Assembly: GCA_002633005.1 (NCBI GenBank)
Contig: NMRA01000754.1
Span: 62,001 to 126,000 of the forward strand
Reading direction: 5' to 3'
Origin: Phoronis australis
Taxonomy: Eukaryota; Animalia; Phoronida
DNA length: 64,000 bases
Shown: positions 4,822 to 53,282 of the stretch, one piece after another
Numbering within the stretch: the stretch's first letter is position 1
Layout: each line of letters begins with the position of its first letter
Program-made: the position numbers and the translations under genes
The notes under the pieces: generated by a model
What the model saw: the letters and a program-made list of their open reading frames with translations, nothing else
Databases searched by the model: none
What the model was told of the DNA's origin: nothing

Positions 4822-6677
4822 TTTTTGAGACACAGAGTCATGGTGGGAACTCTTTAATTGGCCTAGCGTATGTAAGTCTTTTTAACAAGCTTATATACTT
4901 GAAAAACTCATTTTAATTGAGGTGATTTTTATCGCAAGAGAGTATTAAATTAACAAGTAAAGGAGATGATACAAAATTTTGAAATAGTAAAAATGTCAGA
5001 ATAATACCATCCGTTAGTGTTTGCTTTAGCTTTCGAGCTTATTTTACGACGCTAGTGCCTGATGACACGAAACAGTCCCAAACAGTAAGATCGAGCTTCA
5101 CTATGATACCTAAAATTACAGCGCGTTAATTTTGTGGTTTGTGCAACAGCTGGTTAACATCACTAAATCTTACTGTCAAGTCAATTTCTATGTATGATAC
5201 ATGTCGAACGTTCGTAAAAACTCTACAATCAACCTTTTGATGTCAAAGCACATAGTGATCTTTTCATCGAATGCCACTTATTCTAAGTTAAGGACTAAGT
5301 CAGTTTGTTTTCCGTCCTAATAGAAAATGTGCTACAAAAAGGTGATCACAATTCAGAAGTCATAGAAGTATAACAAAAGTGAGTAGATATCGACCGCAAA
5401 TGTGCAGATTTATTGAACGTAGTGGAACTCCTATTTACATGGAACCGGCATCTGGTCTTTGATTAGCAGTGGTGACGTATGTATGCCAGGTCAATTACAT
5501 AGCATTCTCAACTTCATTACCACTGATGTTTTTGCCAAAGTATCCATCGATTTCTGTTCGACGTTATCGTATAATTCCGCCATATATCGTAGATATACAA
5601 ATAACTCACCAGTACGTTTATGAAATACGAACATAATTATATTAAATGTGCAATAAATACAAACTCTTATTACTGCCGATTAGCCTCATATTAATATGCT
5701 ATTATAGTCGTCACTGGGAATTTAGCAGACCCTCATGTCACAAAGTGATCCAGCCGGTTCGGGCTTGCAAACACATGCGTGCCAACAGCGAAAGGGGTGG
5801 GAGAGAAATTGTATACCTAGACCGTCTGTACTTAGCGGCGTATCGTGCATTGTTGGTATGTCTCTTAATTTTATTCCAAGCGTACAAGCTGGATGGCTGG
5901 AGCTGTGGCTGAACAGGAGAAGACTCCATTATAATGGAACTGCTCAACAGATTTACTTTTTAAAAGGATACCAAAATAATTATCTGCAATCCTCCACAGC
6001 CTTCAAAAGTTTGGAGGAGGATTCGAAAACTCCTTTCAAAGTCTGCTAAACGGGCTAGAGTGACTTACGCTTTTAGCAAAGTACAGGGCATCTGTTTGGA
6101 AAAACCCACCCAACAACCAATCTATGACATAGGGAGCATGAATTTTTAGTTAATTCCGGCTTCTATCTTTCAATATTGACGCCAATGATGCAATAGCGGG
6201 TGACAGAACGAGGAACTGGTTAAAATCGTCAAAACAGGGCTTAGTATACAATTAAGTAAAAAGTAAAGTATACTGAATAATATCTAATGGAATAGTAACC
6301 TGCCTTGCACTTTTTGAGGTCAGACTCTGCAGGTTGGCTTGTCAGGGCGTATCATTTTAAGGATCGAGCATTGTCTCAACCAATATTATGTGAACTGTCA
6401 GCTCTTTGCAAGCTCAGGAATTATTTCTTATGATGATTCGAGTCGGGAACAAGTTGGTTGCAATTTTATAGCGGTAAGTGCTCTAACTAAAATTAGCTTC
6501 ATGAAAGGGACGCGGGTTTGCAGCCGCTTCCACTGAGAAACTCGTTTGTTCAACGATGCCCCCCTTTGATCCACTAGAAACCCAGAAGAATGCAGAAAAA
6601 CGGTAATGACATTTCTTCAGGATCCAGAAAAGACTGTCAGTGTTCTGTAGACGATTAAATGCGGAGGTGTCATTTAA

Positions 6678-8852
6678 TTATTTCATCAGCGTCTGCAGTG
6701 TCTTCTCGGCTGATTCTAGTAACTTCTTATAATGCTCAACGTCCTGAAGAACACCATTTTCTTCACAGTAATTCAAAGCAAAAGAACAGCGTGTGGCCGC
6801 GACCATGTGGCGAAACAGTTCTCGAGCTGGCGCGTCTTGTTCACCCAGGAATGCTGTCGACATATGATCCCTGTTCACATTAATTGTGACACAGTCAAGG
6901 ATGTGGCATGTCCTCCCAAGTACCAGTTGTCCTTTATGCAAGCGGAGGGCTTGACAGAAAGACCCGCGCAGTATGACCTCTGCCTCATGCGGATAGTCGG
7001 AAAGCGCGTGAATGTCAACTGCGCAAATTGTGCTGACGACGCTGGATGGGTAAGTCTTCCTATAGTAATCCAAATATTCAGGCTTTACCTCTATGACGTC
7101 AATCCTCATAATGACTGGAATTTTGTCGTCACTGCACTTTTCGATGAAGTCGACAGCCACATTTATGTCCGACGTTGCGGACCAAAGACCAAGAGGGACC
7201 GCGATGTATCTGTCCGGCACAGGGCGTTCGAGAAGGGACGTGAATGCTTTGAAATCTTCAGAAGTTAATCCCAAGCCTCGGTACACCGTTCCCTGAAAGT
7301 TGTTGTGTTCGGGAAATTTCAAACAGTAATTGAACAAGTCGATGTTGATGAGCTCTACGAGAAACACAGCGTTTCGGATTTTGTCGGCAAACTGCACGGC
7401 ATCGTCCTGCCGAAACACAGCATTGATTATTCCAAAAATACATTTGTAGCCGTCAGCCGACGTATAGAGTCGAACAGCATCGAAATTTTCGTCCAACGTT
7501 TCCGGGTGAAGATCGCCCCACTCCCAAGACCTGAGACCAAGTTTGTCAATCCTTTCGGAAAACTTGTCCCCACCGCCAAATTCCTTCTTGTTTTCTTCTA
7601 TGAACTGTTGCATATCGCGAAAAAACTGCTGGCGATTTTTCCAGTTGTGGCGGATGAAGACAATGTTATCTCTTATGGCATTCATACGCTCGTTAACTTG
7701 GTCACCCTTGTAAAAAGGTCGTAGTTCGTTTATGTTCTTACTTTTGCACATCTCTTCCACAGCGTTGGGATTAATATACCTCAGGGCTCGATCATCTGAA
7801 AGAGGAACATTTTGTCAAAACATTTCGAGTGTATTCAAATTATCCCTAAAAATGTCTGAAACCACGTTAGCCTTACTAATCTGTAAAAAGTAATCCAATA
7901 TAGGCCGAGTGTTGGCGACCCAGTTAGCAGTCAGGCGTGTGCTTGTGCACAGCTTCCAAAATTGACCGTTTACGGTTAGAGATTTGCGGGATATCTCAGC
8001 GCAATGGATTGAAGAATACATGGCCACAGCCAACAGCTGATGCCCGCTCAAGGAAACACCCACCCGCCGAACAACTTCGTTTCTAATGGAATTTCAAGAA
8101 TATGTGACAGTGAACGGCTGGAAACTTGGGAAGTAAAAACTCGGCTGTGGCTGAGGGGAAACAAAAAAAGGTCCGCTTGTCATAATGGTCACCGGATACC
8201 CTCGAAAATAAGCAGTCAGCAAAATGGCCTCTTGCGTTCAGACTGCTGTAAATTTTTGTTCACTTAACGTTGGTTATTGAGCTCACGACAGTACCTCTTC
8301 GGTCGCGGCCTTCTTGGCAAATACAACTAGATCTACGGGTTTGATGGTTACCACATTTTTACACATCGGCGAGGAAACACAACTATAGACACGAACATAA
8401 AAACTTATAAAATTTCAATAACTTGCAAGGAAACTTCTTCAGAAAATGCACCTGACATATTCCAGTGGTCATCAACTTTTTAAAAGTTGGCATGCAATTC
8501 TCAGTGTCCACCAATTACGTGAAAACTGAAGCAACGGCATAAATTTTTGTAACGAAAGCAAGATGCTGGCACAATTCCGAGTCAAACATTGGAAATGACA
8601 ATGTGTCTACCTTTCGCTTGGTCTTCCCACATTCAAGCCTAATTGACAAGGATTATAAACAATCTTGATGCGTGTTCGCGGACAAGAAAATATTTACACG
8701 GGTACTAATAAAATGTCACCTTGTTGAGATGTAAGCTCGTCTGCTCTCATTTCAGTAGGACAGCGTTCTTCCTGTCGAGAGTCATCACCTGCAGCGCGAC
8801 TCACGCTCGAGCTATCAGAATTGGTTTCAGTCGCTCGAAATGTTCTGTACAT
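6678..8852 (-). CDS. ARTC-like (R-S-ExE) NAD+-dependent mono-ADP-ribosyltransferase-domain protein, 416 aa, no signal peptide
   Basis: Coding exons 8852-8720 (ATG preceded by an in-frame TGA; MYRTFRATET...ELTSQQ; phase-1 donor GTGAC) and 7795-6678 (acceptor TTCCTCTTTCAG, phase-compatible), total 1251 nt. Motifs: AVRLYTS..Y...IN..FR helix, TVYRG (Arg codon 7278-7280), WSATS (~7170-7184), SDYPHEAEVIL (ExE ~6975-6986). A further non-coding exon is implied by the acceptor at 8868-8869. Confidence 0.75.
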
Positions 8853-9549: not shown

Positions 9550-9602
9550 ACGATGGAACCCAGTATCTTGATATAAATTCTCAAGATACTGGGTTCCATC
9601 GT
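9550..9602. repeat. Perfect 22-bp inverted repeat with a 9-nt loop
   Basis: ACGATGGAACCCAGTATCTTGA-tataaattc-TCAAGATACTGGGTTCCATCGT. Confidence 0.9.
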
Positions 9603-13990: not shown

Positions 13991-15534
13991 ACCGTATTTT
14001 GTGCAGTATAGTCTCAGTAGTTTTCATGAGTTGATTAGTAGTTCTTTCTCCGCATTGAGAAATGTTCTCATCATTCGTTGACAGTCTTCAATATACTAGT
14101 CAAGACTAATCTCTTGTTCTTGCTTACGAACCACCTCGTGCACAGCCAAACCGCATTTTTCCGTGTACCCCACAGTGATTTAGGGACTTTGAAAAAAGCG
14201 ACAGGTCGATACAAGATTGCTGACTCGCTAAATAAGTTGGCTTGTCACGGCGTGTCATTTTATGCCGCGAGCATAATCCAGTTAGGAATAACGATCTGTC
14301 AGTTCTTTTCAAGCCAAGATATCACTTATCATTTGAGTAAGGCAAAAGTTGAAACCAATTTCATAGCAACAAGTTCACTTCTTGGAATGAATGCAGGTTT
14401 TTAGCCCGGCACTTTTAACTTTAGTTCTGGATCACGCTTGTGCGCTGATTGGCCCCAAATCAATGCAACAATCGTTTTTTTATAATTTTATTTCTAAAAA
14501 GCTGACCGTTATAACAGATCATTAAGGTCATCAGTGCACATTAGGTCAAACACATTAACTGAATAACATGCCTGAGTTTACCCCTGCTGTTGACTAAGTT
14601 GGCTAGCTACGGATACGTTCTGAACTGTCCCAAGATATACCCAAATATAAAGCAATGTTGAAGCTGCTATTAAGATTTTTGCATTTTAAGGACTTAATGA
14701 TAAGTTGAAGTCATTTGTTGTTGTGTGTAAATGCATCCATTTCCAGAAGAAACATGATGCTTTGCAGTTACGGGCATGTTCTGAAGCTGCATACATATAG
14801 GCCTATGTTGTAGTGATGAAAATTTAAATAGAAATTGACTGAAAACTCGAAACTTGAAGAGAATTGTAGACGGTGGCCCACAGTGTTGAGACAAGACAAA
14901 GAGATCACGTGGTAAATTAAACCAATAATCGTAGAACAAAGGGGTCACTGACCCGAGAATCCAAACAATATGGTAATGAGGACGAAGCAGTATAGCTTAC
15001 ATGAAATAATTTAATACTTAAATAATGTATAGCTAATCGGACAAGTGTTCGACGAGAGAGAAAAGGCTGACTCCTATTACAGACGTTAGTGCTTGTGCGG
15101 GAGACAATTCATTTTTTGTTGAAATCTACGAGTAGACCGTCGTTACTAACACCGTGGACTTTTACCAGGCAGTATGCTAATACCGTGAGAAATACGAATT
15201 ACTCTAACTTCTACGAGCATTATTTGAAAGCACACGCACGTGCGTATCACACGCGTGTAATATCCGTGTACAGTGAGCGACCTAATCAAGCTAGATCAGA
15301 GAGAGCTGACGCACTCAACTGGCTGCCCCAGCGAAAGTTCGCTGAGTACGTAGCTCACGCCAAGCCATAAAAACACTTAAGAATTGAAAGAACTAGCCAG
15401 GAATTCGTCGACTTGTTCAAGCCTAATCACTTGACGTGATGTGCTCGCTTAACTTTCACTCGTGGCATCCAGATAAGCTCTTCTTCGTCTGCTCTGAGCC
15501 TATCGTTCTAGTAGCACCCTATCTACAAGCGCTA

Positions 15535-18500
15535 TTACTGTACTTCCTTGCAGCCGATGCAATGGTCTGCGTATTTATGTTCAGGACAACAAAAACATTT
15601 ATAAAACTTGAAATTAGATATGTGTTGTCTTTTACACTGGGTGCCAGGTGGGTCACACCACATCAGCCAATCACACGATGAGCTGGCACCACCCGTATAC
15701 CCGTACTTGAATTTTGGTTGGCCGGTCAAGCATTCCACTCCGACATTGTTGGGTTTAATTTCAAGGAGGAAGGATTGGACTTCCAGGCTGAACGTTGTAA
15801 GCGCGTAAGTAGTTCTTCTCGTTCTTGATGCTCTTTTTTGAACAGAGGTTGTAGCAGGGTTAACCCCTCCTGTAAAACAACAAAGGCAAACGAATGTTTC
15901 ACCTTGTTTTAGAGAATATCCTGCAAACATGTTGTTTTACCGTAGTTTAAAACGAAATCGCAACAGACTGCGAAATAATCGGCAGTACCTCATGTCGGCG
16001 TGCAGTTCTTAGCAACTACACCTGTATGAATGGATATCACGTGTTCTATCTTATAAGTCAGCAAATGTTGGTGACTATATTTCTGTACAATGAAAATGAT
16101 ACTATACTGTCACTTGACACTATTATTATTTTTTGTCAGTTGTTTCTTAATGACCTTGAAACCGTGTCACAAACTGTATGTCAGTACGAATCTGTCCATT
16201 TTCACGAATGGCGATGTCTCGGTGGTATGTTAAGAAACGGTCACACTTAAACTTGCAAAACATGACCAATAATTTAGCAGACTATCAACAAATGTAGCAG
16301 CTAATGTATCAGTTATAATTAATTAAAGTTTGTCAAAAACTGTATCGTATTAGCAAATCGGTGCAACATAAAAAGCTATGAAAAGTGTTTTTCGAGGGAA
16401 GTCAAATTGTAGTAACGCCCAAAGGAATATGGACAGGCGCTCAAAAAAAATTAATGAGTCGAACATACATCGACAGCAGTATTTTTTCTTAAAACGTAGA
16501 CGTCAAGATTTGTTTTGGCTCCAATTATTTGGCTCTAAGTTTGTCTCTTCGACTTAGCAGGGAGCAAACAGTCTGAGATCATCATATTGGTGACGATGTT
16601 GATGCTTTACTTCAAACCATTTAATTTGGTATTTTTACAATTTAGGAAGAATGGCACACAATGCTGCTGTCAAAGGAGACTTTCAAAGGACAATTATGAG
16701 GACGCATAGATTTGTCAAAATGGTAAAATATTGGATCAAGCTTTTCAAATGCTCTTGTTGTGCCTAGGTACGTTAAAATTTGTCTTTCTTGTCAATGTTA
16801 GATGACGGAATACAGCAAAGAATGTCAGGCACTTAACGTTAAAAATATTTCACCCCTACTAAGAAAGATGGATAATAGCTTCAAAAGCTAATGAAAATAG
16901 CTGATTGTGCGCTGTGAGTAACAATGTTAATTTGAGCTTAGTGATTTGGCGTTGTCTACAGTAAAAGTGTAATTCGTTCTCAGGACGGTTATCACAAATT
17001 TCACAATTCTCCATAGAATCCTAGGTTTCGCCACAATTTTTTGAGAGGGTGTAACCGCCCAGTCCTCCGCTTTTTATGAGAATGGTTAGAATTAGTTAAC
17101 TACCTAGCAGGAATTCCGCATCGTCCGGAAGTAGCTTCATTCTGTACACTGGTCGGTTCTTGATGAATTCTCGCATTTCTTTCCTCAGGAAATCCAATGA
17201 CTGCAGCGGTCCTTCCGTAACTGTCCAATTTTTTCGAACAATAACGGAGTCTGGGCTTGTATCTTCAATATGAAGCCCGTTTTTCCTCTGTGAGCAAAGC
17301 ACAAGATTTTAGCAAACGATCATGTGACGATAGCCTCATTTTTGTGAGCCTTTCACGTTAGGGATACTGTAGACGGAGAGTTACAACCTGAGCTTAATCG
17401 ACCTCAAGTGAACGATTTTGAGCTTACAGTTCACTTCAAGGCGTTGAACTGACTAGCCTCTATATCATTCACTTGTTGACGTACTTTCACACCTTGACAT
17501 GATCTGTCAGCTCAGCTATCATTCACTTCAATGTGACAGTCAGCTCAGCTCGTAATTCTTCGTCTGCGCTGGATTTTGGGCAATTAAGCTAAAGTGTCTT
17601 TGCTTGAAGTGACGATAAGGTGTTACATCACACCCAAGCAAACTGCTCCAAAATGAAGAAAGACAACATTGCGCTAGCCTATTTTATTAAGCACTTGTTC
17701 AAACATGGTCAAAATTCAATAAAATACTTTTTATGATCTGAAGTTCATACCACGGTAGACCATGCATACTTTTCCATTGACCACGTGTTAAGTATACAGA
17801 GTTTTAAAAACTGGTAATTGTATAACTTCAACTTCCAACCCACCTCGGAACTAGGTCTATCTGCCCTATCGTTGCAACCCATGTCCAGGAGATCAATGTG
17901 GCGTCAATGCATTTATGTTACAATGTGGACACAAAACAGTAGGCCTAATAAACATGAGGACGGAGGCTAAATTAAGGACTTTCTTTCGTAGCAAATCAAC
18001 TCCGAGTCCCAAGTCCGGTTTCCGAGTTGAGTTCCATTATCCTAAGTAGTGTTGTTGCCTCAGTAACTTATTATTTACCAACCTAAATTGCAGTCTTTGC
18101 TAGCTAGGAGAGAAGGAACAAAAATGGAAGGATGCAACTTAATATCATATCGCTCCTCTGTCATCTATTGCACCAGAAGAATTAAACTCACCCACAAAGC
18201 TAACAAGCTGTCTTCCTGGTCTTGCAAGCTGTCAACATGTCCTCGATCAAGTTCAATCAAGAAACATTTTTTCAGGTCAGGTAAACACTGTACAGTGAGA
18301 CCCTAAAATTTTTTAAACAATTTAATTTAAATGAAGACATATAGCAGCAAATTTAAATTTGCTGACTGTGTCATTTGCATTACAAACTGGTTGGGTTTCA
18401 CAGTAATTCTCATTGACTGACTTCTAAGCAAGTCCTCAAAAATTCCTAACAACGCCATTGTTTATCCAAAATGAGGGTACTTGTATGCAACAAAGAATAT

Positions 18501-19642
18501 CGTTCTTTTGTATCTTGCATGTTGTAAGATGAAATTCAGTCAAGATTCGAACTCAGAATATCGATATTTATCGTCGAGTAAGTCGGAACCTCAAAATGTT
18601 TCGTCTTACTGTTCTGCAACAATTAGAAACGGAAACGCTCGTTGTTCATGTCCACTGCGCAAAAGTCACTCAGTGAAATATTTCAAAATGACACCACTTA
18701 AACTTGGGAATGACAAAACTTTGTTTTTATACTGGAGGTTGTAAACAGTGACAATTGTGTACAATGATACACGTCCACAAATATACGATAGTCCGACGGA
18801 GCTCTGATTGATTCTGCGTAACAACTATTTAACATTTCTCCACCATTTTTTTATTAATTTTTTCTTAAAAAATGTTTACTCACGTTGTCCATATCATGCA
18901 TCTCATCCATTGCGTTTACGCCATTGTGTGCTGGAACGTTGATTATTTCTAGGTTCTTGTCGAAGTCTAGCTTCACTCTTTCCGTGTAACTCGTGTTCTT
19001 TTCGACAATATGTATGTCAAAGTTCTACAAATGATTAAAAATTCACCTAAATTAAGCGTTTTGAAATAAATTGGTGAATGCTCGTGGAACTTGTCCTATG
19101 TTTTCTAAGACAATTCAGGGATCTGTTTCAATAGAAGTGACTTAAACTCAAACTTGCTCTTTAGATCGCACTCCATTCTTACCAGTTTTTGTCAAGTAAA
19201 TACGAGCAAATCCCAATACAGAAATAATCTATAGAAATTATCTCGGTAACTACTTGTTATGGATATGACCTCAGACTGAGTTACTTAGTAGTTTTGTTCA
19301 AGTAAGACTTAATTGTTTTTTCAGGAATATTTGTGGTGAGTGTTAGACTTTCATGAAACAAGTAGTGAACAAGAAAATAAAATAACAGAAATCAATTTAG
19401 AGTAAGCAGAAATGTTTTGGTCCGAACTCACGAGGATTATTTAAGAAATGAGATTTTGCCGTTTTCGAAACAAATCATGAATGAGGTCATCGTGCTAGAA
19501 TTTTCTCTGTTTGAACTTTATTCGTCTGATGCTCCGCTGTTTGTTCGGTATTGACTATTCTTACCGCGTCAGTGGATCGTCTCACATGTCTCGCTTCACA
19601 CTGGGTTACCAAGGAGATAACTGCTATCACGAACAGCTTCAT
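15535..19642 (-). CDS. Secreted BRICHOS-domain precursor with furin site and Cys-rich C-terminal domain, 282 aa
   Basis: Coding exons 19642-19565 (MKLFVIAVISLVTQCEA-RHVRRSTDA, signal peptide), 19024-18884 (..ERVKLDFDKNLEIINVPAHNGVNAMDEMHDMDN), 18302-18192 (GLTVQCLPDLKKCFLIELD..), 17287-17104 (..EMREFIKNRPVYRM..) and 15869-15535 (..KRASRTRR plus Cys-rich tail). All introns GT-AG, phases 0,0,0,1, total 849 nt. VPAHN...HD..GLTV...CF and PVY are BRICHOS-type features. Confidence 0.8.
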
Positions 19643-29177: not shown

Positions 29178-32100
29178 ATGGCGAACTCGAACGTGGTCTG
29201 TAAGGTTCATCCAGTTGTTTTATTTTGCATTGTTGATTCCTACGAGAGAAGGAATGAAGATGCTCACAGAGTAATCGGAACATTGTTAGGTAATGTAGTG
29301 TTGGGAAACTTATTCTCTACAATTCATGATGGTGTTGGTTCTTGAATGAACAGTTCCGCCTGGACCTCGTCCTCGGCACAGGTGTCCTCTCAGGCTCAGC
29401 TCGTCCTCAATGCACTACATATAATACTACTAGGTATGACACTCCCGATTAGAAACTTCATGGGTGCTTCACTTCAGCCCTCCATAGCTAATATAAAACT
29501 CAATAAATTTACACAAAACAAGGTTTCAACAAACCATTGGCAATTCTTCTTTCTTCCAATACCATTCACAGTGTCCTGTTCCGGCGATTTCGTAAGAAAT
29601 TCGCAGTCAAAGAACAAAAATGTTCACAAAAAGCCCAAACACACTTCCATCATGGACGGCTCGAGGTCAAGGACGGTACGGAAATTACCGATGAATTACG
29701 GATGGATGGCGTTATCGACATCGTGACTTTTAAGTGTGGAATGTATTTTTGACGAGGTGAAAACACAAAATCGGTGACTGGATTTGGGTTAAAACGAAAT
29801 GTGTACAGAAAGCAAATGGAAGTATTGTAGCCCCTAAATGGCCAACAGAGGGGCTACACGTTGCCTAACGATTCATCAGCACGTTTACAACAACATTCCC
29901 TTCTTTCCTACAAAACGGGCATGCCTCCTGCGTGAGGGGCTGCAGATCTCGGCAGACCCTAGTGTCCTGGAATTTGCCTTCAGCAACACTTCCCCATGTC
30001 CTGGAATTTGCCCTTCAGCAATGCTCTCCGTGGTGTGGATCCACCAACAATTACGCCCTATCCGCAAGCCCCTGAGTTGGCAGTGCTTCCTGTCACCCGT
30101 TTGCCAACTATATCAATTGTAGTAATAGCCGAGATTGCCAACCAGGGAATCAAACCAACAATCCCAATAAAACTGGCAAGCTTGCTAACCATTCAGCTAA
30201 TAGGCAATATGACCAAACAGAGGCTCATATGATGCATCAGAAACACGTCTAAAACGCTACTACTGGCTTTGCTTATGTTTTTTTGAAAACATCAGTTTTC
30301 AGAGAAATTTTGAATGCGCTACCTTCGAAATTATTTCAAACATGCTGGATTATTATGTAAGATAATCATCCTCTGACCTCAGCTCTGTTATGTTCACATT
30401 TCCTTTGCAAGAATTCGTAATCTCAAATTAAAGAACTCCTTCGTCTGTTTCCACTTATGCCAGACGGAACAGTCAAAAGTTGGTTGAACTATGTAGTTAT
30501 AGAAGTTTTTACTAATGTAGAGCAATCTGGACTTCTGGAAGGTTCTGTCTCGTTTCAATTTAGAAAAATGAGACGTCTGTCCATAGTTCATAACATTATT
30601 TATAATGGCAGACTTCATGTAACCGTTACTGGATATTGGTGTAGACCAATTAATTCATAGTGAATTGTGTGTTCCCAGGTTGAATATTTCAGTTGTTAAA
30701 AATAATTTTCGCTTTTAATGTATGCGTGGTACGACTGTGTCAGAGTACCAGTCTGTGTCAATATACCAGTCTGGCTATAGTTCATGGTCTAAATCCTTCC
30801 TGTATAAGCACATGTACCAGTCTGTGCCAATATACCAGTCTGGCTATAGTTCATGATCTAAATCCTTCCTGTATAAGCACATGTACCAGTCTGTGTCAAT
30901 ATACCTGTATGGCTATAGTTCCTGATCTAAATCCTTCCTGTATAAGCACATGTACCAGTCTGTGTCAATATACCAGTCTGGCTATAGTTCATGATCTAAA
31001 TCCTTCCTGTATAAGCACATGTACCAGTCTGTGTCAATATACCAGTCTGGCTATAGTTCATGGTCTAAATCCTTCCTGTATAAGCACATGTACCAGTCTG
31101 TGTCAATATACCAGTCTGGCTATAGTTCATGGTCTAAATCCTTCCTGTATAAGCACATGTACCAGTCTGTGTCAATATACCAGTCTGGCTATAGTTCATG
31201 ATCTATCCTGTATAAGCACATGTACCAGTCTGTGTTAATATACCAGTCTGGCTATAGTTCATGATCTAAATCCTTCCTGTATAAGCACATGACCAAATGC
31301 CTACAGCCAAGGATTTTAGTTACACCAATGCATATTTGGTGACAACTGTCACTTCTATAAGCACTGCATCGCCACTCGAGTGCTATATTGATACATAGTT
31401 AAAACCGAGCTTAGGAGCTAGAAACCTGACTCAAGGGTCTAGCAGCAGTGTGGTCCAGGGAGACTCAAACCCACGACCTCGACTCCTTGAGTAAAGAAGG
31501 TGGGCACCCATCAAACTACTCCACACTGCCTTCGCCTTACTACAGTTCAACAGTTGTGAACTTTTGGCAAACCTTGTAATCTGACTGCATTTTTGTCACT
31601 GATTTTCGAACTTGTTTAATCACTCACCTGAAGCCAGTCCCATTAAATACAATGGCTCGAGATGTGCAGCCAAAGCAGACATAACATATGTTTTTCATTA
31701 CAGGTTCACAGGACAAAAATTCTGTAGAAATCACAAACTGCTTTACAGTTCCACATAACGAGTCAGAAGATGAGGTAAGCATAATTGACTAGCTGCAGCC
31801 CATAGTAGAACCAATGATGTATGCAATGATATTCAGTGGACTAGCTGCAGCCTATTGTTGACCAATGATAGATTGGCACTGATATTCAGTGGTGATGCAA
31901 TGATCTTTTAGTAGATTCTCAACTTTTCAAACAAAAGAACTAACCAGATATTAGGAAATAACCATGCAACATTGTCAATTTTGCAAGACATTGATAAATT
32001 CGTGGTAAAAATAGAAAATGCCATCAGCTCATGTACATTGTGTCTTTAAAATGCCCAGTTATAGGTACTGTTGCAAATTATCCAGACAGTGTAAAGCCTG

Positions 32101-35100
32101 ATCCACATTATGTAAGAGTCTCAGTCACAGTGTAGTTGGTTCTTGCAGCCATTTTATAATCCACCAGGATGAATTGTCTGATAGTATAGTGACTTGTTGC
32201 AACGCAATGTGTGCATGAATATGCAGCAGCTGGGTACAACTTGGTGCAATTTGATGCTTCTTACAATAATGTTTGTGCAACAACCTGTTGTATTCTTCAA
32301 TGGGATACTAGTGACCTTTTGGGGGATGAAGAGGCACTTCATAATTTTTGTTTAAAACATCCATCTACTCTAATCACATACATCGTGAAAGTCAAAGTGT
32401 TCCCCTGTGCTATCTGCTGAAACATCAAAGTACATGCTGCTACAGCCAGGTGGCGATTTGAGTCACCAGTCTTTTTTACAAAGTCAAACTGTTCCCCTGT
32501 GCCATCCGCTAAATAGCTAAGTATCTGCTACGTGACTGCCAGGTGGCGAGTTGAGTCACCGGTCCCATGTGGTCAGCCCCCCCCCATTACTTCCTGAAAG
32601 TTTCCCATTCTGACAACTGGTTCTGTAATAAATTGTGTGTGTTCAAGAAGCAACTCTGTTATTCTAAACAGACCAACAGTAACAATATACATCTTTATGG
32701 TGTCATGCAATGGTCTGTCATTAACAGTTAGGTGTCAGGATGGTTTTTTCTTTGTAGGTGGCTGTTGACATTGAATTTGCTCGTAACATGTACGAACTTC
32801 ATCGGAGAGTGAATCCAGCTGAGAGTATTGTTGGTTGGTGAGTGTAAGCCAAACATTTTGATAATTATTTAAGTAGTCCATTGTTCAACTGACCATGTTG
32901 TCCAAAACGGCTACTGCACGGAAATAATTTTGATTTATGAATGGTTCGTGGTTTTCACCTCCTCTATTGATAAATACCTCAAGTGATTTTTCAAAAGGAT
33001 TTTACAACAATTATGATGATGTAATGTAATGCAAAAACTGAACGATTCTTCATAAACAAGACATGCAGGGGATTTTACGAATTCCAATTATAGTTTGAAC
33101 TTGATCACACAAAATGGATACCATCAATGTCCTAGTAATTTTATGTCAAGGTCCACCTTGACCTTATCACAATTTTTTAACACCTACGCACAGTTAATGA
33201 CGCACCCATAGATTTCTTGGTTTTCATTTCATATGTGGTGAGCATTTTTACGTGTATGAGTACGGTGAACTTTCACTACTCAACAGGTCAGGCAGGTGGA
33301 TGTGTGTGAGATAAAGTGACTTTTCATTTGAAACACACCTGACAGAACATTGGCATTTTATTTTATCAAAATTTCAAACATAAAGTGAATAGGAAGAAAA
33401 CTTTACTTCATTATTTGCTCAGTTTATATTTTGCAGTTGTTATCAACAATCACGCAATGAAATTTGAACATTTTTAGCAAAACGGAGAGCTTTCGATTGA
33501 ATGTAAGATTGACAGTCTTGGCAGTTGGTTTATGTGGAATTGAGGAGTGTTAACCACGCTAATGTTCTCCCTATTCCATATTGCAGGTACTCCACTGGTC
33601 CTGATGTCACTGAACACTCAGTTCTTATACACGAGTACTACACACGTGAAGCCAAGAGTCCTATCCATCTGACAGTTGACACCAGCCTCCGTGGATCACA
33701 CATGGGAATCAAGGCATACATGAGGTACACCCGTTTGATCGGGATGGAGATACTTTACTGTTGCTTAAGGAATCGTGTTAACACTTTCGTGACGGAATTA
33801 TTTAGTAATGAATGACACTACCTTGTGAGTGTCAAATTTTGAAGACATTAAGAGAATTTGGTGCAATAGCAAAAAGTCTCAAAGTTGTTTAGGTGGTATA
33901 CATGTATTGCCATGAAATATTCAGTCAGAAGTGTTTCGTACAGTGTCAGACTTCTGAACTATGATTCCGCATCTGAAGCTTTTGCTACTTTCCTCGGGTA
34001 ACTGGTCGTCAACTGCTTGACAAGTAACTACAATTGCTCCAAGTTTACTGAAATGAGATGCTTTCATGAAGTGGTTGGCTGTTGACTGCTCTTTGTGTCT
34101 CGTTTGAGAGATTAAAACCAGACGAGCTTTAGACAATTACCTCAAGTTGACTAAAACCTTATCACACAATAGTTTCCAAGAATTGCTTACATTTTCTTTA
34201 ACAGCTGATGTAACTATCGCCGAATGGTTTATTAATGTCATTAAGTATCATCAAGTGTGCATCAAAAATAGATTTAATCAAAGTTGTTGTTTCTTTACGA
34301 CAGTGGCTGTCACTTTGTAAATCACTGAATTGTTTGCCCTATTTATTCCACTGAAGTTTGAATTCCCATTACTTTGTGAAAAAACACTGGAAGTCTAAGT
34401 TGTCTCACTCAAATAATCCTTATGAAATAACACTTTACTATACATTAGACAAGTGTTGTTTTCCTGGCAGAGCATTGGGTTGCATTATGCCAGGCTGCAG
34501 TTTCCATCATCTCCAATAGATGTCTCTGCTGTCTATTTCAGTGCAGCTATGGGTGTTCCTAGCAGGACTGTTGGCACTATGTTTACGCCTGTCCCTGTGG
34601 AGATAACAAGTTATGAACCTGAGCAAGTGGGAGGTCAGTACTAGCTCTGATGCATCCTCTGAAGTGTACCACCCATGTCACTCTGATGCATCTCTGAGAA
34701 ATGTACCACCCATGTCACTCTGATGCATCTCTGAGAAGTGTACCACCCATGTCACTCTGATGCATCTCTGAGAAATGTACCACCCATGTCACTCTGATGC
34801 ATCTCTGAGAAGTGTACCACCCATGTCACTCTGATGCANACCATGCCTTTCCATTTTGCAAAGTATGCCCTCTACTGGCGACTTTATGGTACCAATAAAC
34901 AACCCTAGAAGGATACCGTATGCGGTGCAATTGTGGGCGCACTTCAACGCTCCGCGTTACTCTTGTTATGTGTATGAGTACGGTGAACTTTCACTACTCA
35001 ACAGGTCAGGCAGGTGGATGTGTGTGAGATAAAGTGACTTTTCATTTGAAACACACCTGACAGAACATTGGCATTTTATTTTATCAAAATTTCAAACTTA

Positions 35101-38100
35101 AAGTGAATAGGAAGAAAACTTTACTTAATTATTTGCACAGTTTATATTTTGCAGTTGTTATCAACAATCACGCAATGAAATTTGAACATTTTTAGCAAAA
35201 CAGAGAGCTTTCGATTGAATGTAAGATTGACAGTCTTGGCAGTTGGTTTTGTGGAATTGAGAAAAGTTAACCACAGTAATGTTCTCCCTATTCCATATTG
35301 CAGGTACTCCACTGGTCCTGACGTCACTGAACACTCAGTTCTTATACACGAGTACTACACACGTGAAGCCAAGAGTCCTATCCATCTGACAGTTGACACC
35401 AGCCTCCGTGGATCACACATGGGAATCAAGGCATACATGAGGTACACTGGTTTGATCGGGATGGAGATAGTTTACTGTTGCATAAGGAATCGTGTTAACA
35501 CTTCCGTGACGGAATTATTTAGTAATGAATCGCACTACCTTGTGAGTGTCAAATTTTTGAAGACATTAAGAGTATTTGGTGCAGTAGCAAAAAGTCTCAA
35601 AGTTGTTTAGGTGGTATACATGTATTGCCATGAAATATTCAGTCAGAAGTGTTTCGTACAGTGTCAGACTTCTGAACTATGATTCCGCATCTGAAGCTTT
35701 CGCTACTTTCCTCGGGGAAACTGGTCATCATAGCTGCGATCCCAATTGCTTGACAAGTAACTACAATTGCTTCACGTTTACTGAAATGAGATGCTTGCAT
35801 GAAGTGGTTGGCTGCTCACTGCTCTTTGTGTCTCGTTTGAGAGATTAAAACCAGACGAGCTTTAGACAATTACCTCAAGTTGACTAAAACCTTATCACAC
35901 AGTAGTTTCCAAGAATTGCTTACATTTTCTTTAACAGCTGATGTAACTATCGCCGAATGGTTTAATACTGTCACTAAGTATCATCAAGTGTGCGTCAAAA
36001 ATAGATTTTATCAAAGTTGTTGTTTCTTTACGACAGTGGCTGTCACTTTGTAAATCACTGAATTGTTTGCCCTATTTATTCCACTTTAGTTTGAATTCCC
36101 ACTACTTTGTGAAAAAACACTGGACGTCTAAGTTGTCTCACTCAAATAATCCTTAGGAAATAAAACTTTACTATACATTAGACAAGTATTGTTTTCCTGG
36201 CTGAGCGTTGGGTTGCATAATGCCAGGCTGCAGTTTCCATCATCTCCAATAGATGTCTCTGCTGTCTATTTCAGTGCAGCTATGGGTGTTCCTAGCAGGA
36301 CTGTTGGCACTATGTTTACGCCTGTCCCTGTGGAGATAACAAGTTATGAACCTGAGCAAGTGGGAGGTCAGTACTAGCTCTGATGCATCTCTGAGAAGTG
36401 TACCACCCATGTCACTCTGATGCATCTCTGAGAAGTGTACCACCCATGTCACTCTGATGCATCTCTGAGAAGTGTACCACCCATGTCACTCTGATGCATC
36501 TCTGAGAAGTGTACCACCCATGTCACTCTGATGCATCTCTGAGAAGTGTACCACCCATGTCACTCTGATGCATCTCTGAGAAGTGTACCACCCATGTCAC
36601 TCTGATGCATCTCTGAGAAGTGTACCACCCATGTCACTCTGATGCATCTCTGAGAAGTGTACCACCCATGTCACTCTGATGCATCTCTGAGAAGTGTACC
36701 ACCCATGTCACTCTGATGCATCTCTGAGAAGTGTACCACCCATGTCACTCTGATGCATCTCTGAGAAGTGTACCACCCATGTCACTCTGATGCATCTCTG
36801 AGAAGTGTACCACCCATGTCACTCTGATGCATCTCTGAGAAGTGTACCACCCATGTCACTCTGATGCATCTCTGAGAAGTGTACCGCCCATGTCACTTGA
36901 CATCACCTTTAGTGAATCCAACCGTGTTCATGTGTTGCAATGGTGCTAAATAAACACATAACGCTGTTACACTTACACATATCCATGACTCATTAAATTT
37001 AACTTTGGCTTTAATTAATGTTCTCTTGGCCCTAATTGATTAATTATGTATGCGATGATCTTGGAGCAGTTTGCTCAACAATCAGTTTGTAATGGTCATC
37101 ATTAACTTTAATCAATATTTTCTGCCCGTTTTAAGCTTTTTACTTGTCACGAATTGTAAACATAATTCAAATATCAATATAAATTTGCAGCTTTCCCTAT
37201 TAGAATATTCATTATGACAAATAAAAGTCATCAATAATGTTTAAGGAAACTATGACTGACTCACATTTTTGGCCAGCAGCAAGTCAAGTCATTGTTTTAG
37301 CCAAAGTCATGAACAGATAGCAACAGTAATTAAAATAACAGTCACCACCTATTTCGCTACACCAAAATAAGTGATTTTTATTGTAAAATGTCTTAACAAA
37401 GTTTAGACTGATTCTTAAAATCAAGTTCTGGAATCACCTTGCTTTTGAGTATTCAGACAACAAAGTTAAAATCTCACATGTGTTCTACTGCATTGTTACG
37501 CATTTGATGCAATATTTTGACCGTATTTCTAACTGATACCTCCAAACATGTGGGTGTGGAAACATATGCCAAGGAAAGTTAACATTTGAGTTTGCTTAGC
37601 TGAGTTATTTGCCCAATTCAGTCGTGCTATAACCTAACTGCAAAATCATATTTCAAGTCAATACTTTGCACACTATGTTGTGTGATGCCTTTCTCCGGTG
37701 TACAATGAGGCTTGTCAATGTTCTGTTTTGAAACTGGAGTTGTCTCCCCTGAGCATTTTGACAAACTCGTACTCTAGAAGAGCAGTCGCAATTTTTGGAT
37801 GTTGTCTTGCGTGCATCCTTCTGATTGTTTAGCTGGCATGCCAGTTTTACACCATGTCTCAAAATGAACTGAATACCAGATACAAAGAGAATTTAAGTTG
37901 TTGGATATTCTTCCAGTCATATTGCTGACATTGCCATTGTTGTTTTTATTAAAGACATGATTGACCTTTGACCTTGTAGTGGACGTCATACAACAAGTGA
38001 AGTACAATCCTAAGAGAACCGTAGGGGTCAAGTCGGACTTGGAGCAGGTCAGTTCAGCGTGTGGTGACCTGCTGGAGATGTTGACCACTGTCCAGAGTTA

Positions 38101-41203: not shown

Positions 41204-44200
41204 TTATAAGGGGGTAGTGTTGACACCGTTCTCATTAACACTTTCACGCGAGGCTGCAGTAACCTTGTCAGGATTCTCTCCTGGGTCCCCTGGTTTGTAC
41301 AATAACCATGCTACCAGACCAAGTCCAAAAGACAGCACTTTCACTAAAACAGTAACGAGCCCCATTTTCCACGCTAAGCTATCAATGCCATAATACAGGC
41401 AAGACGTCTGTTGTCCGCACTTCTCGCCCCAAACGATGCAGGCTGTGTCAAATATGTAGCCGACAACAATGGGTCCGGGTATGGTACCTGTAACAACATG
41501 GTTGCAAATGGATCAGATAGACAACCTTAGATTTCATTTGGGGATAATTCCATTCAGCAACTAGATATAAAAATGTGCAGTGAAGAGGATCACTTTTCTT
41601 AATAGTAAAAATACAAGGTCAAGGTCAATACAAACTTACAACAGCATTAAATTATTAGGCTCAATGTAAACCTTCAAATAACACAATCAGATGTCTGTGG
41701 CAATAGACATGTCTTCCACCAGGAATTGTTTTACTGGGGTGAGGACTAATTTGCCTGTGAAAAAATTAACGGGAAGTGCATTTCAACTTTACACTCTCCA
41801 TCCATAATCTCACCTCTCACAACTTGCATTGAGCAAATGACACAATATAAATGTGCACACCAAATACAAAATAGTTTTTGATAAGCACCATCAAAAGAAG
41901 CCTTGATGCATTCATCTGCACATGGAGGACTGTAAGCCTTACTGGTGACTAATACATTAAGTCCTACCTAAAACCCGTGCTGTCACCCATCCACACCCAG
42001 TTGCTAGAGACCTCTGTGGGTAGGGTACGCACCTACAAAATGCATATTATTACCAGCGACAGCCATGTTACAGAAGGGCAACATGACTTATGATAAGTAT
42101 AACAAGTCTAGTCGCAGCTCCGACAGTCGCAAGCCCGTTACTGCAAACGCGATGCTGTGTCTTGGAAAAGCTACAACATGGCGACAGACCTTATGTTGAT
42201 ATTTTATCATATTCATACTTAATGACTGCCTACACACGCCTCAATAATGAACTGTCTGAAGTTAAAATTAAAGTTACGACTGTCTTGGCTAAGACTGGAC
42301 TTCCAACCTTTGATAAAACAGGCCCATGGTCTTCCTAAGTAATGAGTTTGTCAGAGCTACTTACAGTATAGGTCAGCCACCCTTCGAAAATGTGGCAATT
42401 GTTAAAGGTCAATTTGGCAAGATTAACCATATACCACACAGCTTCTGCTTTCAGAATATGTTATTCATAAGTTCTTTACACATCATTTTAAGCGTTGGTA
42501 AAAAGTACAAACAATAAAAATGCAACAATTAACAATAACGGGAAGAATATAAATATTCTTGATAAATCAAATTTCATGAAAATCCAAGAAATTTGCACGA
42601 GACCGTAGGAAACAAATTTAAAATAAAATAGCCAGAGTTAGGCACAACAATGGTCAGATTTGATAGAAATCATCGTCTGTGGATGGCCAACTTAACAGGA
42701 ACATTGGCCAAATCCTGCAAGGGTCTTCAGGAGAAACCACTGCAAACGAAGGGCAAATTGCACGTTCATTGTGTACACATGTTTAAAGTGACGTTGTACA
42801 GACCTTAGAATGACCTGAATCTGCGGCGTGGCTACCATAAACATAAGGAAAACGAAGAGGAAGAGCATGACCATGAAGGCAGGCATGAGGTTACATGAGG
42901 TCACACACTTGCCAGTAGTGGCCTGAACTGTAGAGTTAGCCAGACACGAACAGTTGGTGTAGATCTGGGAAAGAGAAGGCAACGTGGGCTGTGTGAATAA
43001 GGGTGAGATCGTGCAAGTCTGCCAGATATCACCATGAACCTTTTTACAGATAAAGTGAGATGTAACATGAAAAATAGATTGTGGAAAGTCATTTAGCATT
43101 AAAGCAAAATGAAACAAGAGAATGTGCACATTTCCAGTCAGCCCTGGGACGGCGAGAATGTAATGTATTTTGCAAATCCGAGTCTGCTCAGGTGCATGCA
43201 TGCAGCAATTTGTTATCTTCAAATCACTCAATGCATTACAACCAAAGGACTTAAACTCACCAACTTTCACTCAAATCTTGTGCCAAGCAACAGGCACTGC
43301 AATCTTCTGAAGGTTCGTTTGGAAAATTTCAAAAAACCGAAAGTTAGAGAACGGCATGTTATTAACCGCTGAATAGACATTAATTTCAGTTGCAACTTAG
43401 CAAGAACAGTGACACAATCCACAATGCTTTTCAAATGGCACGTAATAGGCCATTAAAAATAAATTTACCCATCGTCCAACCTGAGAAGTGTACACACCTT
43501 TGAATTCTGAGTAGTGGAACATCCAGCATGACATGGTGAAAAGTACATGATATCACCAGCACATACTGGTTGATATATCTCCGCACTACAGTCACAGGCA
43601 GTGTTGCATGTTGAGGATAAGTTGAGCATGGAATGACTTGTATTACTGTAAAGAATGAATGATGTTGTATCACCACCACACAATGGCAGGTATAGGAATA
43701 GGTGGAATAAGATTTCATGGGGTTCCAATCATGATTTTTTTTCGAAAGGAAAAAAATTCGCTGAGGCCCCACGAATGGAATGCCCACGGTTTTTTAGTAA
43801 TGCTCCAGGCCCCTTAAATCCACCTATGGTTATAGGTCTCTGGATTACCTTGTTACCGCAAACACAGTGCAAATACCGGTAGCACTTCCGTAAGCTCAGA
43901 AATCATTTACAACCTAAGATTTCCAACCTGGTACAATCTGATATCAACCTTAGTGGTCAAATTCAGGGCTTTTTAGTGCTGTAGTGGGACATAGGCGCAC
44001 GTAGGCACAGCCAACCCCCTTTTGGCATTTGAACGTAGCGCCTACACACCGTAAGTAACGTTATAGTAGGGCGTAGGTGCACGTCGGCACATTATGCATT
44101 AAGACTTTTCCATGCAGTACAGCTGAATGTGAATGAGGATTCGGCGAAAGGAATCAGATGGCCAACAGACAATCAAAGGGCCACTGACGACAAACCACAT

Positions 44201-47200
44201 GGGCGACTAAAAACACTGCCCGTATACATTTTTTGGGCATTACACACCTAAATTTTCCTTTATAATTGTGTTTGGACCCCCTTCAAAGGCCGCTTGGAAT
44301 GCACACGGACCTTTGGCTTCCTATATGTGTGGTTGGGCCCCCTTTCTGTGACATCCTAGATTCGCCACTGCAGACTCGAAGTGAAATACCCACTCGTGAG
44401 TTAAAAATAGGCCTACATGATTTTGAGAATTCAGCGCACTTTTAAAATTCAGTGCTCAAGGTGATATGGTGGGCTTCGGGTGCCTAGTACTTACCTCTAA
44501 TTTTACCACTGACTACTATACAGCACTGGGGCTTTTTTTGACAGCGTTTGATATTATAATCACTCCCGGTGGGCAAATAATGGCTTTAAACATGGGCTTG
44601 TAAGTGACTGCTCAGGGAAATTACCAACAGGAGACAATGACACGTGAGATTTTAAAATGTGAGACATGGTTGTCACAGCTTGGCACACAACTTGAATCTC
44701 AATCAAAAAATATTGTGACAATGAGTAGATAATTGAGCTAATGATCAATAAAATACAATAAAATGAAGAATTTTAAATAAAATTCATCACAGTATTTTAT
44801 TGTCACACTTTTGTCTAATAAGGTAGTTTGAATTTTTGACAGTGACAACAGTTGCCAATATAGGTCCTGCCCTATTTAAAATCCAGGAACATTTTTGGAG
44901 GTATTAGATGATTCAAATACTTGTCCTATTAGTTCCTTTGGTCATGCACACAAGTCACACCTCCCCATTGTGTTGTCCTTATTACTGATATCCATCTCCC
45001 TTGCCTAATTCCAAAACAAAAGAAGCCAGTCATTTAACTCCAGGCATTGTAAAATGCAGCTATTGGAATCGGGTTAACCTGGGAAATACAAGTCATTCAA
45101 CTTGGCCGTTGGATGACGTAGTACATGTAGCTAATGGGAAAAAATTGTCCACTCCCCCCTCCCCTCCCCTGGTGCTTGTGCCTTATAAAAGAGAATATTA
45201 TGGGATGAGACGAAAATTTTACCACCCGATCACCGTAAATAGCTGACTCCCACTCTATTGCACGCCCACAAAGGCTCTGCCGCAAATAGTCAAAACTAAT
45301 GTTAACTTTGTACTCTTTCAAATTGAAACCTGTGTGAGTTACAAATGATTCAAACCTCGTGAGGAATTTTTCAATCACTTGTCTTAATGAGGGAAATCGC
45401 ATGATTTTTCAATATTCTTCTCAACCTGTTTTAATTCATGATGTTACATATATTTCATTGTTGTTTTATTACTTCATTGTATTATATTACTGTTTTTCTT
45501 GTTGAGGGCCCTCTTGGAAAGCAGTGCTATCACTGAAGAGGCCTCCCTCATTTTAAATATCACAATAATAAATAATACATAAATAAAAATGAGGCTGATA
45601 TTCGGCACCCAAAATTGAGGGATTGAGGGCCCTACAATCACAACTTACCCTGTCAAATAGTCGACTGTCACCCCAGCATACTGTGCATTGTCACATCCCA
45701 TGATGAGAAAGAGAGACGAACCGACCAGCAGTGCCACTCCCAGACATATACTACAGTACCTGAGCATCTGACCACAGTCCATGTTCAACTTGTGCATGAT
45801 AATCCCACTCAGAAGTGCCCCCCCGGTAGCAGCTGTAACCACTATGGCACCTGAAGATGAATCAATTAACCATGGCAGGTGTACTGTGAGACATGTCAGA
45901 CATTTAGACCACACCCATAAAAGCAGTCTAATCATGGAACACTTAGTCTGAGTGACGTATGTCAGACATAAAGTGGAACTTGCACGCTATTTCTTCATCT
46001 CTGTGATTGCTTGGTCAAATTAGTTAGAAACACAACATATAGCGATGATGTGAATATGAAGTAGGTTGAAAATTGCCAAATGTTTCTAAGAACGAGTTTC
46101 GTGTCGAAAATGAACTACCAGAAATCACTCAATCGTGTCCAGTATGTATAGTGACATGGTGTTGTCGACCAACAACACTGCATGATGAGGGCCATATGAG
46201 CCCCTAACTTATGTCATGAGTGCAAAGCTCACCTATTTGCAGAATTTTTGTTTACACAATTACAAGATGCCAATGAATACAACTGCACTAGTGTAGATGA
46301 TGTTCAAATAGTTCCTTCTATACATTAGCATAGTTATGAGCATGCAAATAAATCTTTAAGACCGTGTCCTTACTAATCATGGTATGGTACACAATGCGAT
46401 ATAGTTAGACCACGTCCACAACATGAGAACTTCACGATACTTTGAATTCATTCCGCTGCCGACTGCTTAACAGCGGCAAAAATCTTTCCAATTCCAAAAA
46501 TGGAGCACTGACGTAGATATACTGTCGTTAGAAAATAAAATGGAAACCAAAAATGTTGCAGTTCATGCTTTCATTAATAACTGCCAACAAATTGAAAACC
46601 ACTAAAAATTCAGCAATGACGGTGTAAAAACCAAAGAAATAGTCCTGAATTGACAATTTTTTGCAAAATCTCAAATTAAAAACAGGTAGACAAAGAGCAT
46701 TGTGGGTTAAGAAAAACGCGAGCACCAAACAATGTGTACCTGAGTACGTGGACGATGCCGAAGCGCTTACGCTGAAGACACTTTCCAACAATTTTGGTAA
46801 GAACGAAGCATAAGCTCCCATTAAAAATCCCTCCATACTGTCGCTGAGAATGCACATAACATATGTTTTATTAGACAGCAGGTTTTTTAAAGCCAGTGGT
46901 AAGTCTTTGACAGTCTTTCCAAAGTTTTTCTGCAAAACTTTAGCATCGCTACCAATTTGAGCCTCATTAGTTCGTGCTTCTCGGTAACTCGCTGTGTCTG
47001 CAATCAAGCATACAACAATGTAAAGAAAAAATTGCAAATCCAATTCAACGTTTTTTGCAAAACTTTAGCATTGGTACCAATCTGAGCCTCATTAGTACGT
47101 AGTTCTAAGTAACTCACTGTATCTGCAATCAAGCATACAATAATGTAAGAAAAAAATCACAAATCCATTTCAAAGTTTTTTAAAACAGCTTTGTTAAAAT

Positions 47201-53200: not shown

Positions 53201-53282
53201 ACTGGACATCCACATGATTGGAGCAATGGCCACCATCAGAGTTGTCTTGGTGAGGATGAGAGTTTTTCTGGAGATCAGTCAT
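41204..53282 (-). CDS. Organic anion transporting polypeptide (SLCO/OATP family, probably SLCO4-like), 668 aa
   Basis: Exons 53282-53072, 51000-50830, 50335-50228, 49063-48890, 48557-48455, 48082-47961, 46997-46740, 45850-45649, 43645-43498, 42964-42804, 42032-41968 and 41487-41204 (2007 nt, phases consistent). OATP signature DPRWYGAWWLG, LEKRFGLSSTQTG, YLDENV, Kazal-like CNTACDCS..YQPVC..YFSPCHAGC, LGTIPGPI..G.IFD.AC. Confidence 0.93.

Follow-up and report, generated by a model that had tools for sequence, protein, structure and literature searches.

A predicted cytosolic ARTC-class ADP-ribosyltransferase in Phoronis australis and its relatives in bacteria, fungi and other invertebrates

The DNA considered here is a 64,000-nt stretch of the phoronid Phoronis australis (NCBI GenBank assembly GCA_002633005.1, contig NMRA01000754.1, positions 62,001 to 126,000 of the forward strand), which we call the window and whose own numbering is used throughout. 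On its minus strand lies a two-exon gene for a protein of 416 residues that, by its predicted fold and its R-S-ExE motif, is a member of the ARTC class of ADP-ribosyltransferases (ARTs). The protein is likely to be cytosolic, it has relatives in bacteria, fungi and other invertebrates, and in a part of the microbial loci the gene for the relative lies beside one for a receiver-domain (REC) protein.

The gene and its predicted product

The two coding exons, of 133 and 1118 nt, are joined in frame to give 416 amino acids and a stop (Table 1). An earlier reading made from the letters of the window alone (the sequence-only reading) had proposed this spliced frame with five motifs, and the in-frame GT..AG joint bears it out. 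Spliced reads across the joint at 7795/8720 (924 nt skipped, CT..AC) are found in each of three raw-read RNA runs, numbering 3, 6 and 15 in X2, X3 and X4, all on the strand that fits a minus-strand mRNA. The three runs come from one study and about 18-19% of each was sampled; run X1 was left out because it covers only the 3′ part, in diverged contigs. RNA depth is zero at 8012-8681 inside the intron in runs X2-X4, and is about 1-11 over the coding exon as against about 14-30 on the last exon of the next upstream gene. Given a depth below that of the neighbour and a junction present in all three runs, expression of the ART gene is low but real. A TGA lies in frame 12 nt upstream of the ATG, which rules out an N-terminal extension of the protein.

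The window has 20 frames that reach 110 aa; the longest is the 378-codon one, and the runner-up has 192. Exon GC is 0.46, ordinary for coding DNA (window range 0.31-0.48), and the differences listed include at least three in coding sequence, two of them silent and one altering a residue of exon 1. As the sequence-only reading had it, the ARTC domain lies entirely in exon 2 and the adjacent genes are rich in introns; small exons of about 110-185 nt do occur in them. The same reading called exon 1 acidic and of low complexity; the low complexity stands, and the acidity is only mild (9 Asp or Glu against 6 Arg in 44 residues), with Ser and Thr equally rich (12 of 44). Within the 3′ untranslated region, a dispersed repeat at 5980-6230 attracts many diverged reads on both strands.

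Table 1. Parts of the Phoronis ART gene and motifs of its predicted product (window coordinates; conservation counted over 200 homologue rows)
Feature	Position	Strand	Description	Evidence or conservation
Coding exon 1	8720..8852	-	ATG and 44 codons; N-tail of low complexity, rich in Ser, Thr, Asp, Glu and Arg; no signal peptide	RNA depth and junction reads
Intron	7796..8719	-	924 nt, GT..AG, phase 1	RNA junction reads
Coding exon 2	6678..7795	-	Whole ARTC domain, N-terminal helices, C-terminal helical hairpin, stop TAA	
3′ untranslated region	5340..6677	-	About 1.3 kb, end approximate	Continuous minus-strand RNA depth; AATAAA near 5875
RMxxxRxxIxxxRxxW	7641..7688	-	Family-specific N-terminal helix motif (R86, R93, W96)	R 195/200, R 197/200, W 193/200; helix in model
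YT...N...R	7410..7466	-	Helix motif before catalytic core	Y 197/200, R 193/200
ELINIDL	7335..7355	-	Family-specific motif (E192)	E 200/200, L 198/200
VYRG	7275..7286	-	First catalytic strand (R217)	R 199/200; strand 175-183 of model
SATS	7170..7181	-	STS-type motif (S250)	S 193/200; strand 210-214 of model
STICAV...S.Y..E-x-E	6978..7034	-	ARTT loop with E315 and E317	Both E 198/200, C 194/200
NRDH	6864..6875	-	Family-specific motif after last strand	195, 197, 198 and 196 of 200

In the protein, the motifs YTSA, INAVFR, VYRG, SATS and HEAEVIL stand at residues 155, 168, 215, 250 and 314, respectively; the YT...N...R element is the ARTC alpha-3-type motif. The arginine together with ExE is retained in 198 of 200 near-full-length homologues, these being rows that cover at least 290 profile positions, a few of which are the same protein reached twice. 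Conservation extends well beyond the catalytic triad: R86, R93, W96, E192, C302 and the NRDH motif are near-invariant (Table 1), as is R240 (196 of 200). The ARTT loop ends in E315-A-E317, an E-x-E as in arginine-specific ARTCs. Section 2.2 of PMC8120803 describes ExE as common among arginine-modifying ARTs.

The class assignment is consistent with an AlphaFold model of exon 2 (pLDDT 90, pTM 0.90), which places R217, S250 and E317 on predicted strands. In a fold search of 48,161 chains (VIA), the top 22 rows are all of ADP-ribosyltransferase fold and the first unrelated row has a Z of 5.8. The best matches are ART2.2, with 195 residues aligned at an rmsd of 3.8 (Z 11.7), and HopU1, with 199 aligned at 4.4 (Z 11.3), and Foldseek concurs (HopU1, E 2.8e-5), in keeping with the ARTC call of the sequence-only reading. 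By analogy with the matched folds, the R, S and E residues would meet on one NAD+ cleft. The extra helical segments expected on both sides of the core appear in the model as N-terminal helices and a C-terminal hairpin.

At the level of sequence the family is isolated. The query has no relevant Pfam match, PF01129 being unmatched even at E ≤ 10; 45 of 81 aligned homologues match PF01129 weakly (E ≤ 0.1), P0142 alone passes its cut-off, and one homologue passes that of PF03496. In searches of PDB sequences, neither the query nor the family profile nor a bacterial member gave a meaningful match. The family has no model of its own in Pfam, NCBIfam or PADLOC, so that the description of it as poorly characterized was apt.

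A cytosolic location is likely, judged by hydropathy. The best 10-residue window in the first 35 residues scores -0.38 and the best window of the C-terminal 30 residues, a predicted helix, scores -0.37, so that the absence of a signal peptide and a glycosylphosphatidylinositol (GPI) tail claimed from the sequence holds; the most hydrophobic 19-residue window (1.37) is internal. N-terminal 10-residue hydropathy is at most 1.13 in 31 animal-clade homologues, and no hydrophobic N- or C-terminal segment is found in these or in the query. In this respect the predicted protein is unlike the exported ecto-ARTs. The vertebrate ecto-ARTs (PF01129), which include the best structural match, ART2.2 (PDB 1GXY), have the R-S-ExE motif in common with the Phoronis protein; however, identity is only about 13%, PF01129 does not match, and the extra N-terminal helices, C-terminal hairpin and family-specific motifs belong to the Phoronis protein.

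Distribution and ancestry of the family

A word search recovered 80 relatives among 1,644 candidates. The named ones comprise 10 animal sequences (seven from bivalves and snails, and those of Actinia, Hydra and Macrostomum), 11 basidiomycete and two bacterial; an additional search supplied Rhopilema as a further animal member. No vertebrate name occurs among the named matches, only some matches carrying names. An exhaustive search gave 187 clusters at 50% identity, which indicates a small family. In bacteria it is rare: a strict pattern found five loci among 185,579 species genomes, the enzyme was present in none of 400 further Actinomycetota and none of 400 further Cyanobacteriota genomes, and relatives were absent from the viral contigs searched and from PLSDB plasmids; one copy, at locus L001, is plasmid-borne. 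Animal members stand alone and are mostly 370-425 aa long. A weak search found no relatives of 985-2810 aa, lengths of 663-984 aa being covered only by the exhaustive search.

The protein nearest to the query is 60-62% identical, followed by the animal clade at 43-48% and by the named bacterial members checked at 33-39%. In a quick IQ-TREE analysis of 70 rows hand-picked from the 200, all 11 rows from named animals, among them the query, are placed on the same side of one branch, with an SH-aLRT of 84 for the 27-row group and 89 for its separation from the other named groups; support for the animal group is thus moderate. The named basidiomycetes form a separate group (SH-aLRT 99). A FastTree of all 200 rows places the flatworm outside the animal group. 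Within that group the query lies nearer to cnidarian than to mollusc sequences, with modest support (SH-aLRT 86-92). The tree is compatible with an old entry into animals, which may have been from bacteria, and with separate entries into fungi.

Gene structures in related animals are informative for the single large catalytic exon. DNA of the jellyfish clade (L006, L007) has no intron across the catalytic region, so that such an exon is no sign of recent transfer or retroposition; in bivalve-type DNA (L041, L043, L045) the region is split near query residue 208, with GT and AG seen in L041. Acidic N-terminal tails, several beginning with M-Y, occur across the bivalve-clade homologues.

With the homologue from Potamilus as query, the nearest ESM Atlas clusters, at 0.98 (rich in Basidiomycota) and 0.97 (rich in Mollusca), consist of hypothetical proteins with no common Pfam domain, and are probably the enzyme's own family. 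Rotifer-rich, PF01129-like ART clusters come next by features (0.96), yet they are separate clusters. Two further groups of relatives were noted. A second, probably fungal clade (L047-L067; P0153, P0142 and others) carries C-terminal extensions of about 80-270 aa that lack a Pfam match; sequence like these extensions also forms separate neighbouring frames, and one such locus adjoins a PigL_N (PF17111) gene. The divergent P0212 matches the family profile with a probability of 99.6; it has the R and ExE, lacks the N-terminal helix motif and NRDH, and is a possible outgroup.

Genomic neighbourhoods

In four of the five named bacterial loci, a small gene encoding an N-terminal hydrophobic segment and a REC domain adjoins the enzyme gene or lies one gene away. 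To count linkage more widely, 70 loci were reduced to 41 groups at 70% identity, the labels prokaryote-, fungal- and animal-type being partly inferred from tree position and gene content. By the same definition, linkage to a REC gene holds for 9 of 25 prokaryote-type groups, in which the REC is usually membrane-anchored, for 2 of 12 of fungal type and for none of four short animal-type groups; among the prokaryote-type groups with 800 nt or more of flank on each side it holds for 7 of 14. As a background, this type of REC occurs anywhere in 6 of 150 other Actinomycetota genomes.

The two domains are also found fused, in P0189 and P0202 and in the fungal proteins P0166 (Gloeophyllum), P0111 (Grifola) and P0043 (Gelatoporia) and P0150. 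A profile made solely from bacterial RECs, 11 in number, picks up fungal ones (E 1.9e-8, 6.1e-6); it retrieves P0111 and P0166 and also the REC exons of L013, L015 and L066, and the Atlas model of P0111 residues 95-240 resembles Response_reg folds (TM about 0.7). Because the REC-linked enzymes fall in several separate clades, the linkage is not a single event. Linked RECs keep W[VI]DD and the acceptor aspartate, and in 21 of 22 copies an arginine follows three residues later (D-x-x-R). No histidine kinase is among the recurrent neighbours. At one locus (L066) duplicated helix-bundle and REC genes flank the enzyme on both sides, and the enzyme gene itself is in two frames. A HeLo-like identity for the N-terminal domain of the fungal partner was considered and dropped, as there is no such Pfam match and the model resembles only generic four-helix bundles.

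Other neighbours were also seen. A second partner family, with one membrane segment, belongs to a low-GC group, where it is adjacent to the enzyme in L033 and L042 and fused to it in L035 and P0130; it matches the PADLOC '2TM effector' weakly (E 0.0008). A HIT gene lies downstream of the enzyme in six loci (three groups), all of one enzyme clade, with weak matches to PADLOC ThsC2 (E 0.002-0.009). Defence-type neighbours seen at single loci are a CBASS cyclase (L001), AbiEi (L020), DUF4062 (L042) and Macro (L017). Neither an ARH-type immunity neighbour nor a delivery domain was found among the recurrent neighbours and 36 longer homologues, not every neighbour having been scanned and many loci being short. 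A third upstream partner family of about 300 aa, with no Pfam or PADLOC match, is present at two distant loci (L002:4421-5314 and L030:2-907; E 8e-92).

The neighbourhood of the Phoronis gene contains several other features. About 700 nt upstream of the ATG, at 9550-9602, two 22-nt arms of a perfect inverted repeat enclose a loop of 9 nt; the hairpin has -25.1 kcal/mol and a z of -10.3, and is possibly the remnant of a small mobile element. The next upstream gene (14500-19600, minus strand) is expressed and spliced, and has a weak BRICHOS match (E 0.019, below cut-off) and a Cys-rich last exon; annelid BRICHOS precursors of antimicrobial peptides are known, and the gene could be an immune neighbour. 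At one of its junctions (18301/18302-18883/18885) runs X2 and X3 differ by one letter (A) and have non-canonical ends where X4 has a canonical joint, probably an allele at the exon edge. Farther on are minisatellites, namely eight copies of a 69-nt unit at 30745-31295 and one 37-nt unit in arrays at 34645-34838 and 36378-36897 that flank an eIF3F exon, and exons of an OATP/SLCO transporter gene (42692-53345, minus strand). The eIF3F exon has its best named matches in Owenia (81%), Watersipora (76%) and Mytilus (73%), by which the host is probably a lophotrochozoan.

Proposed function and alternatives

We propose, with a probability of about one half, that the Phoronis protein is a regulated cytosolic protein-arginine mono-ADP-ribosyltransferase that descends from a conflict module of two parts, with the REC protein as the enzyme's target or controller. 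From NAD+ the enzyme would transfer one ADP-ribose unit to an arginine in the protein it targets, catalysis and arginine specificity both being likely from the ExE signature. We infer tight regulation from two things: normal samples make the protein, and about 12 residues outside the triad are near-invariant. Of these, R86, R93, W96, E192, R240, C302 and NRDH may make up a conserved site for the acceptor or for control. The enzyme's target or controller in microbes would be the REC protein, whether anchored in the membrane or linked to a helix bundle, with the arginine three residues past the acceptor aspartate as a candidate modification site, and the modification would switch a membrane-acting or growth-arresting response. 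Since the animal window has no REC partner, the target there would be an unlinked one, and defence or stress signalling the probable setting. An immune or cell-death role is plausible by analogy with the microbial gene context, and not from the Phoronis gene itself.

There are a number of observations that weigh against this proposal. D-x-x-R also occurs in RECs that have no enzyme nearby (L074-L076, L079), so that the motif is not specific to the pairing, and no REC is seen in 16 of the 25 prokaryote-type groups or in 10 of the 12 of fungal type, some of them lacking flank. The window contains neither a REC nor a second ART. The four-helix bundle at the N-terminus of the fungal partner has no specific cell-death match, and the enzyme itself has no PADLOC match. 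Expression, though low, is present in all three RNA runs. Finally, identity of 33-48% across kingdoms and the lack of a run of paralogues in the window point to more conservation than one would look for in a fast-evolving immune effector.

The alternatives differ in what the enzyme modifies and in how it reached Phoronis. Unlikely, though well worth considering, is that it makes a diffusible NAD+-derived signal, either free ADP-ribose or ADP-ribose on arginine or another small acceptor, which the microbial REC senses before firing the membrane segment, as in the layout of Thoeris or CBASS, with an unlinked receptor in animals. The loci do combine an enzyme, a membrane protein with a possible ligand-sensing domain and a nucleotide-cleaving gene: HIT with its ThsC2 matches, Macro at L017, and the one-segment partner (L033, L042, L035, P0130) with its '2TM effector' match could all be read in this way. 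The REC fold of the linked type is found also with TIR and KAP-NTPase domains, a part of PMC8195603 proposes kinase-independent receivers as nucleotide-responsive switches, and invariant residues common to bacteria, fungi and animals would suit a small, unchanging acceptor. However, the nearest solved folds are protein-arginine transferases, the PADLOC matches are weak, the HIT-linked enzymes count as about one event because they are one clade, and the REC gene and the enzyme gene often point away from or towards each other instead of running in the same direction. We consider it distinctly less probable that the protein is a non-immune regulatory writer which, like DraT, reversibly modifies an arginine of a conserved metabolic or signalling protein and has been patchily kept in animals. 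Strong conservation across kingdoms, constitutive low expression and the stand-alone animal members of 370-425 aa, with none found at 985-2810 aa in the weak search, would be expected of such a writer; its great rarity and scatter in bacteria, the plasmid copy, neighbours that are mobile or defence-type genes, and the lack of an ARH/DraG-type ADP-ribosylhydrolase among the recurrent neighbours would not.

Two further alternatives have little to recommend them. CARP-1 of clams is a guanine-modifying ARTC, and a nucleic-acid ADP-ribosyltransferase of this kind or like pierisin is a conceivable but improbable reading of the Phoronis gene. Outside the core there are several invariant arginines with which it could bind nucleic acid, and guanine-modifying ARTCs of animals are described in a passage of PMC8120803; nevertheless, ExE rather than QxE is present in 198 of 200 homologues and, more weakly, pierisin and Scabin are not among the fold matches listed. 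Least probable of all is a recent horizontal acquisition or retrocopy confined to the Phoronis lineage, which the sequence-only reading had suggested, together with gain of a host first exon. An intron-free catalytic exon amid small-exon neighbours invites the idea, as does the closeness of a lophotrochozoan gene to cnidarian rather than mollusc sequences, which may reflect animal-to-animal transfer or hidden paralogy. Yet the gene lies within the animal homologues and has no close relative in bacteria, its intron-free state is shared with jellyfish-clade DNA and its acidic N-terminal tail with other animal homologues, and exon GC is ordinary; on these sequence comparisons a bacterial donor for such an event is largely refuted.

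A broader form of our proposal is more doubtful than its core, though possible: an NAD+-based defence module would span bacteria, fungi and animals, its ARTC-fold switch either modifying the REC at D-x-x-R or making an ADP-ribose-derived messenger that the REC senses, and so triggering a membrane-acting effector, while cnidarians and lophotrochozoans would have kept the enzyme as a cytosolic arginine writer. The nearest known systems have some features in common with the family. HopU1, XopAI, Vis, Tre1 and the SdeA mART, bacterial effectors or toxins of arginine-type ARTC, are similar in fold (Z 9.4-11.3) and in ExE; they differ in sequence (12-18% identity), and the present family, in the members and neighbours scanned, shows no secretion or delivery domain and no recurrent ARH-type neighbour, is partnered by a REC or one-membrane-segment protein, and includes an animal gene with an intron. 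Pierisin, ScARP, Scabin and clam CARP-1 are likewise ARTC enzymes, of a kind used by invertebrates, but have QxE where the present family has ExE, gave no sequence match and occupy a narrow lineage, as opposed to a range from cnidarians to molluscs; parts of PMC3482391 propose a lateral origin for the pierisin type. Thoeris and CBASS operons also set an NAD+-using enzyme (predicted here) beside a membrane protein, with HIT or Macro nearby, but their signal enzyme is a TIR or a cyclase rather than an ARTC fold, and the present family has no PADLOC model. Finally, kinase-independent receivers of conflict systems are matched here by a REC with no histidine kinase among the recurrent neighbours.

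Passages of PMC8195603, PMC7824862 and PMC9503650 jointly indicate that the literature already contains kinase-independent receivers in conflict systems as well as the repeated transfer of ARTs to eukaryotes. Full-text literature searches did not find the enzyme family or the ART-REC pairing, although a prior listing in supplements (e.g., S3 of PMC9503650) is possible, and the passages on new systems in preprints 10.64898/2025.12.03.692087 and 10.64898/2025.12.08.692795 contain no receiver or response-regulator effector. What is apparently new is a cytosolic ARTC family, as yet unnamed, that is common to bacteria, fungi and invertebrates and has a recurring REC partner.

To our knowledge, the characterized arginine ADP-ribosyltransferases of animals face the outside of the cell, and the identity of a writer within the cell is a long-standing question; the eraser ARH1 is cytosolic. 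The family described here provides a concrete and expressed candidate for a cytosolic writer of arginine ADP-ribose in invertebrates, and its recurring REC partner provides, in bacteria, a compact form of two genes that is open to direct test. If the proposal is correct, an ARTC enzyme and a receiver domain would join the immune modules common to bacteria, fungi and animals, and the pair would exemplify the control of a receiver domain by ADP-ribose instead of phosphate.

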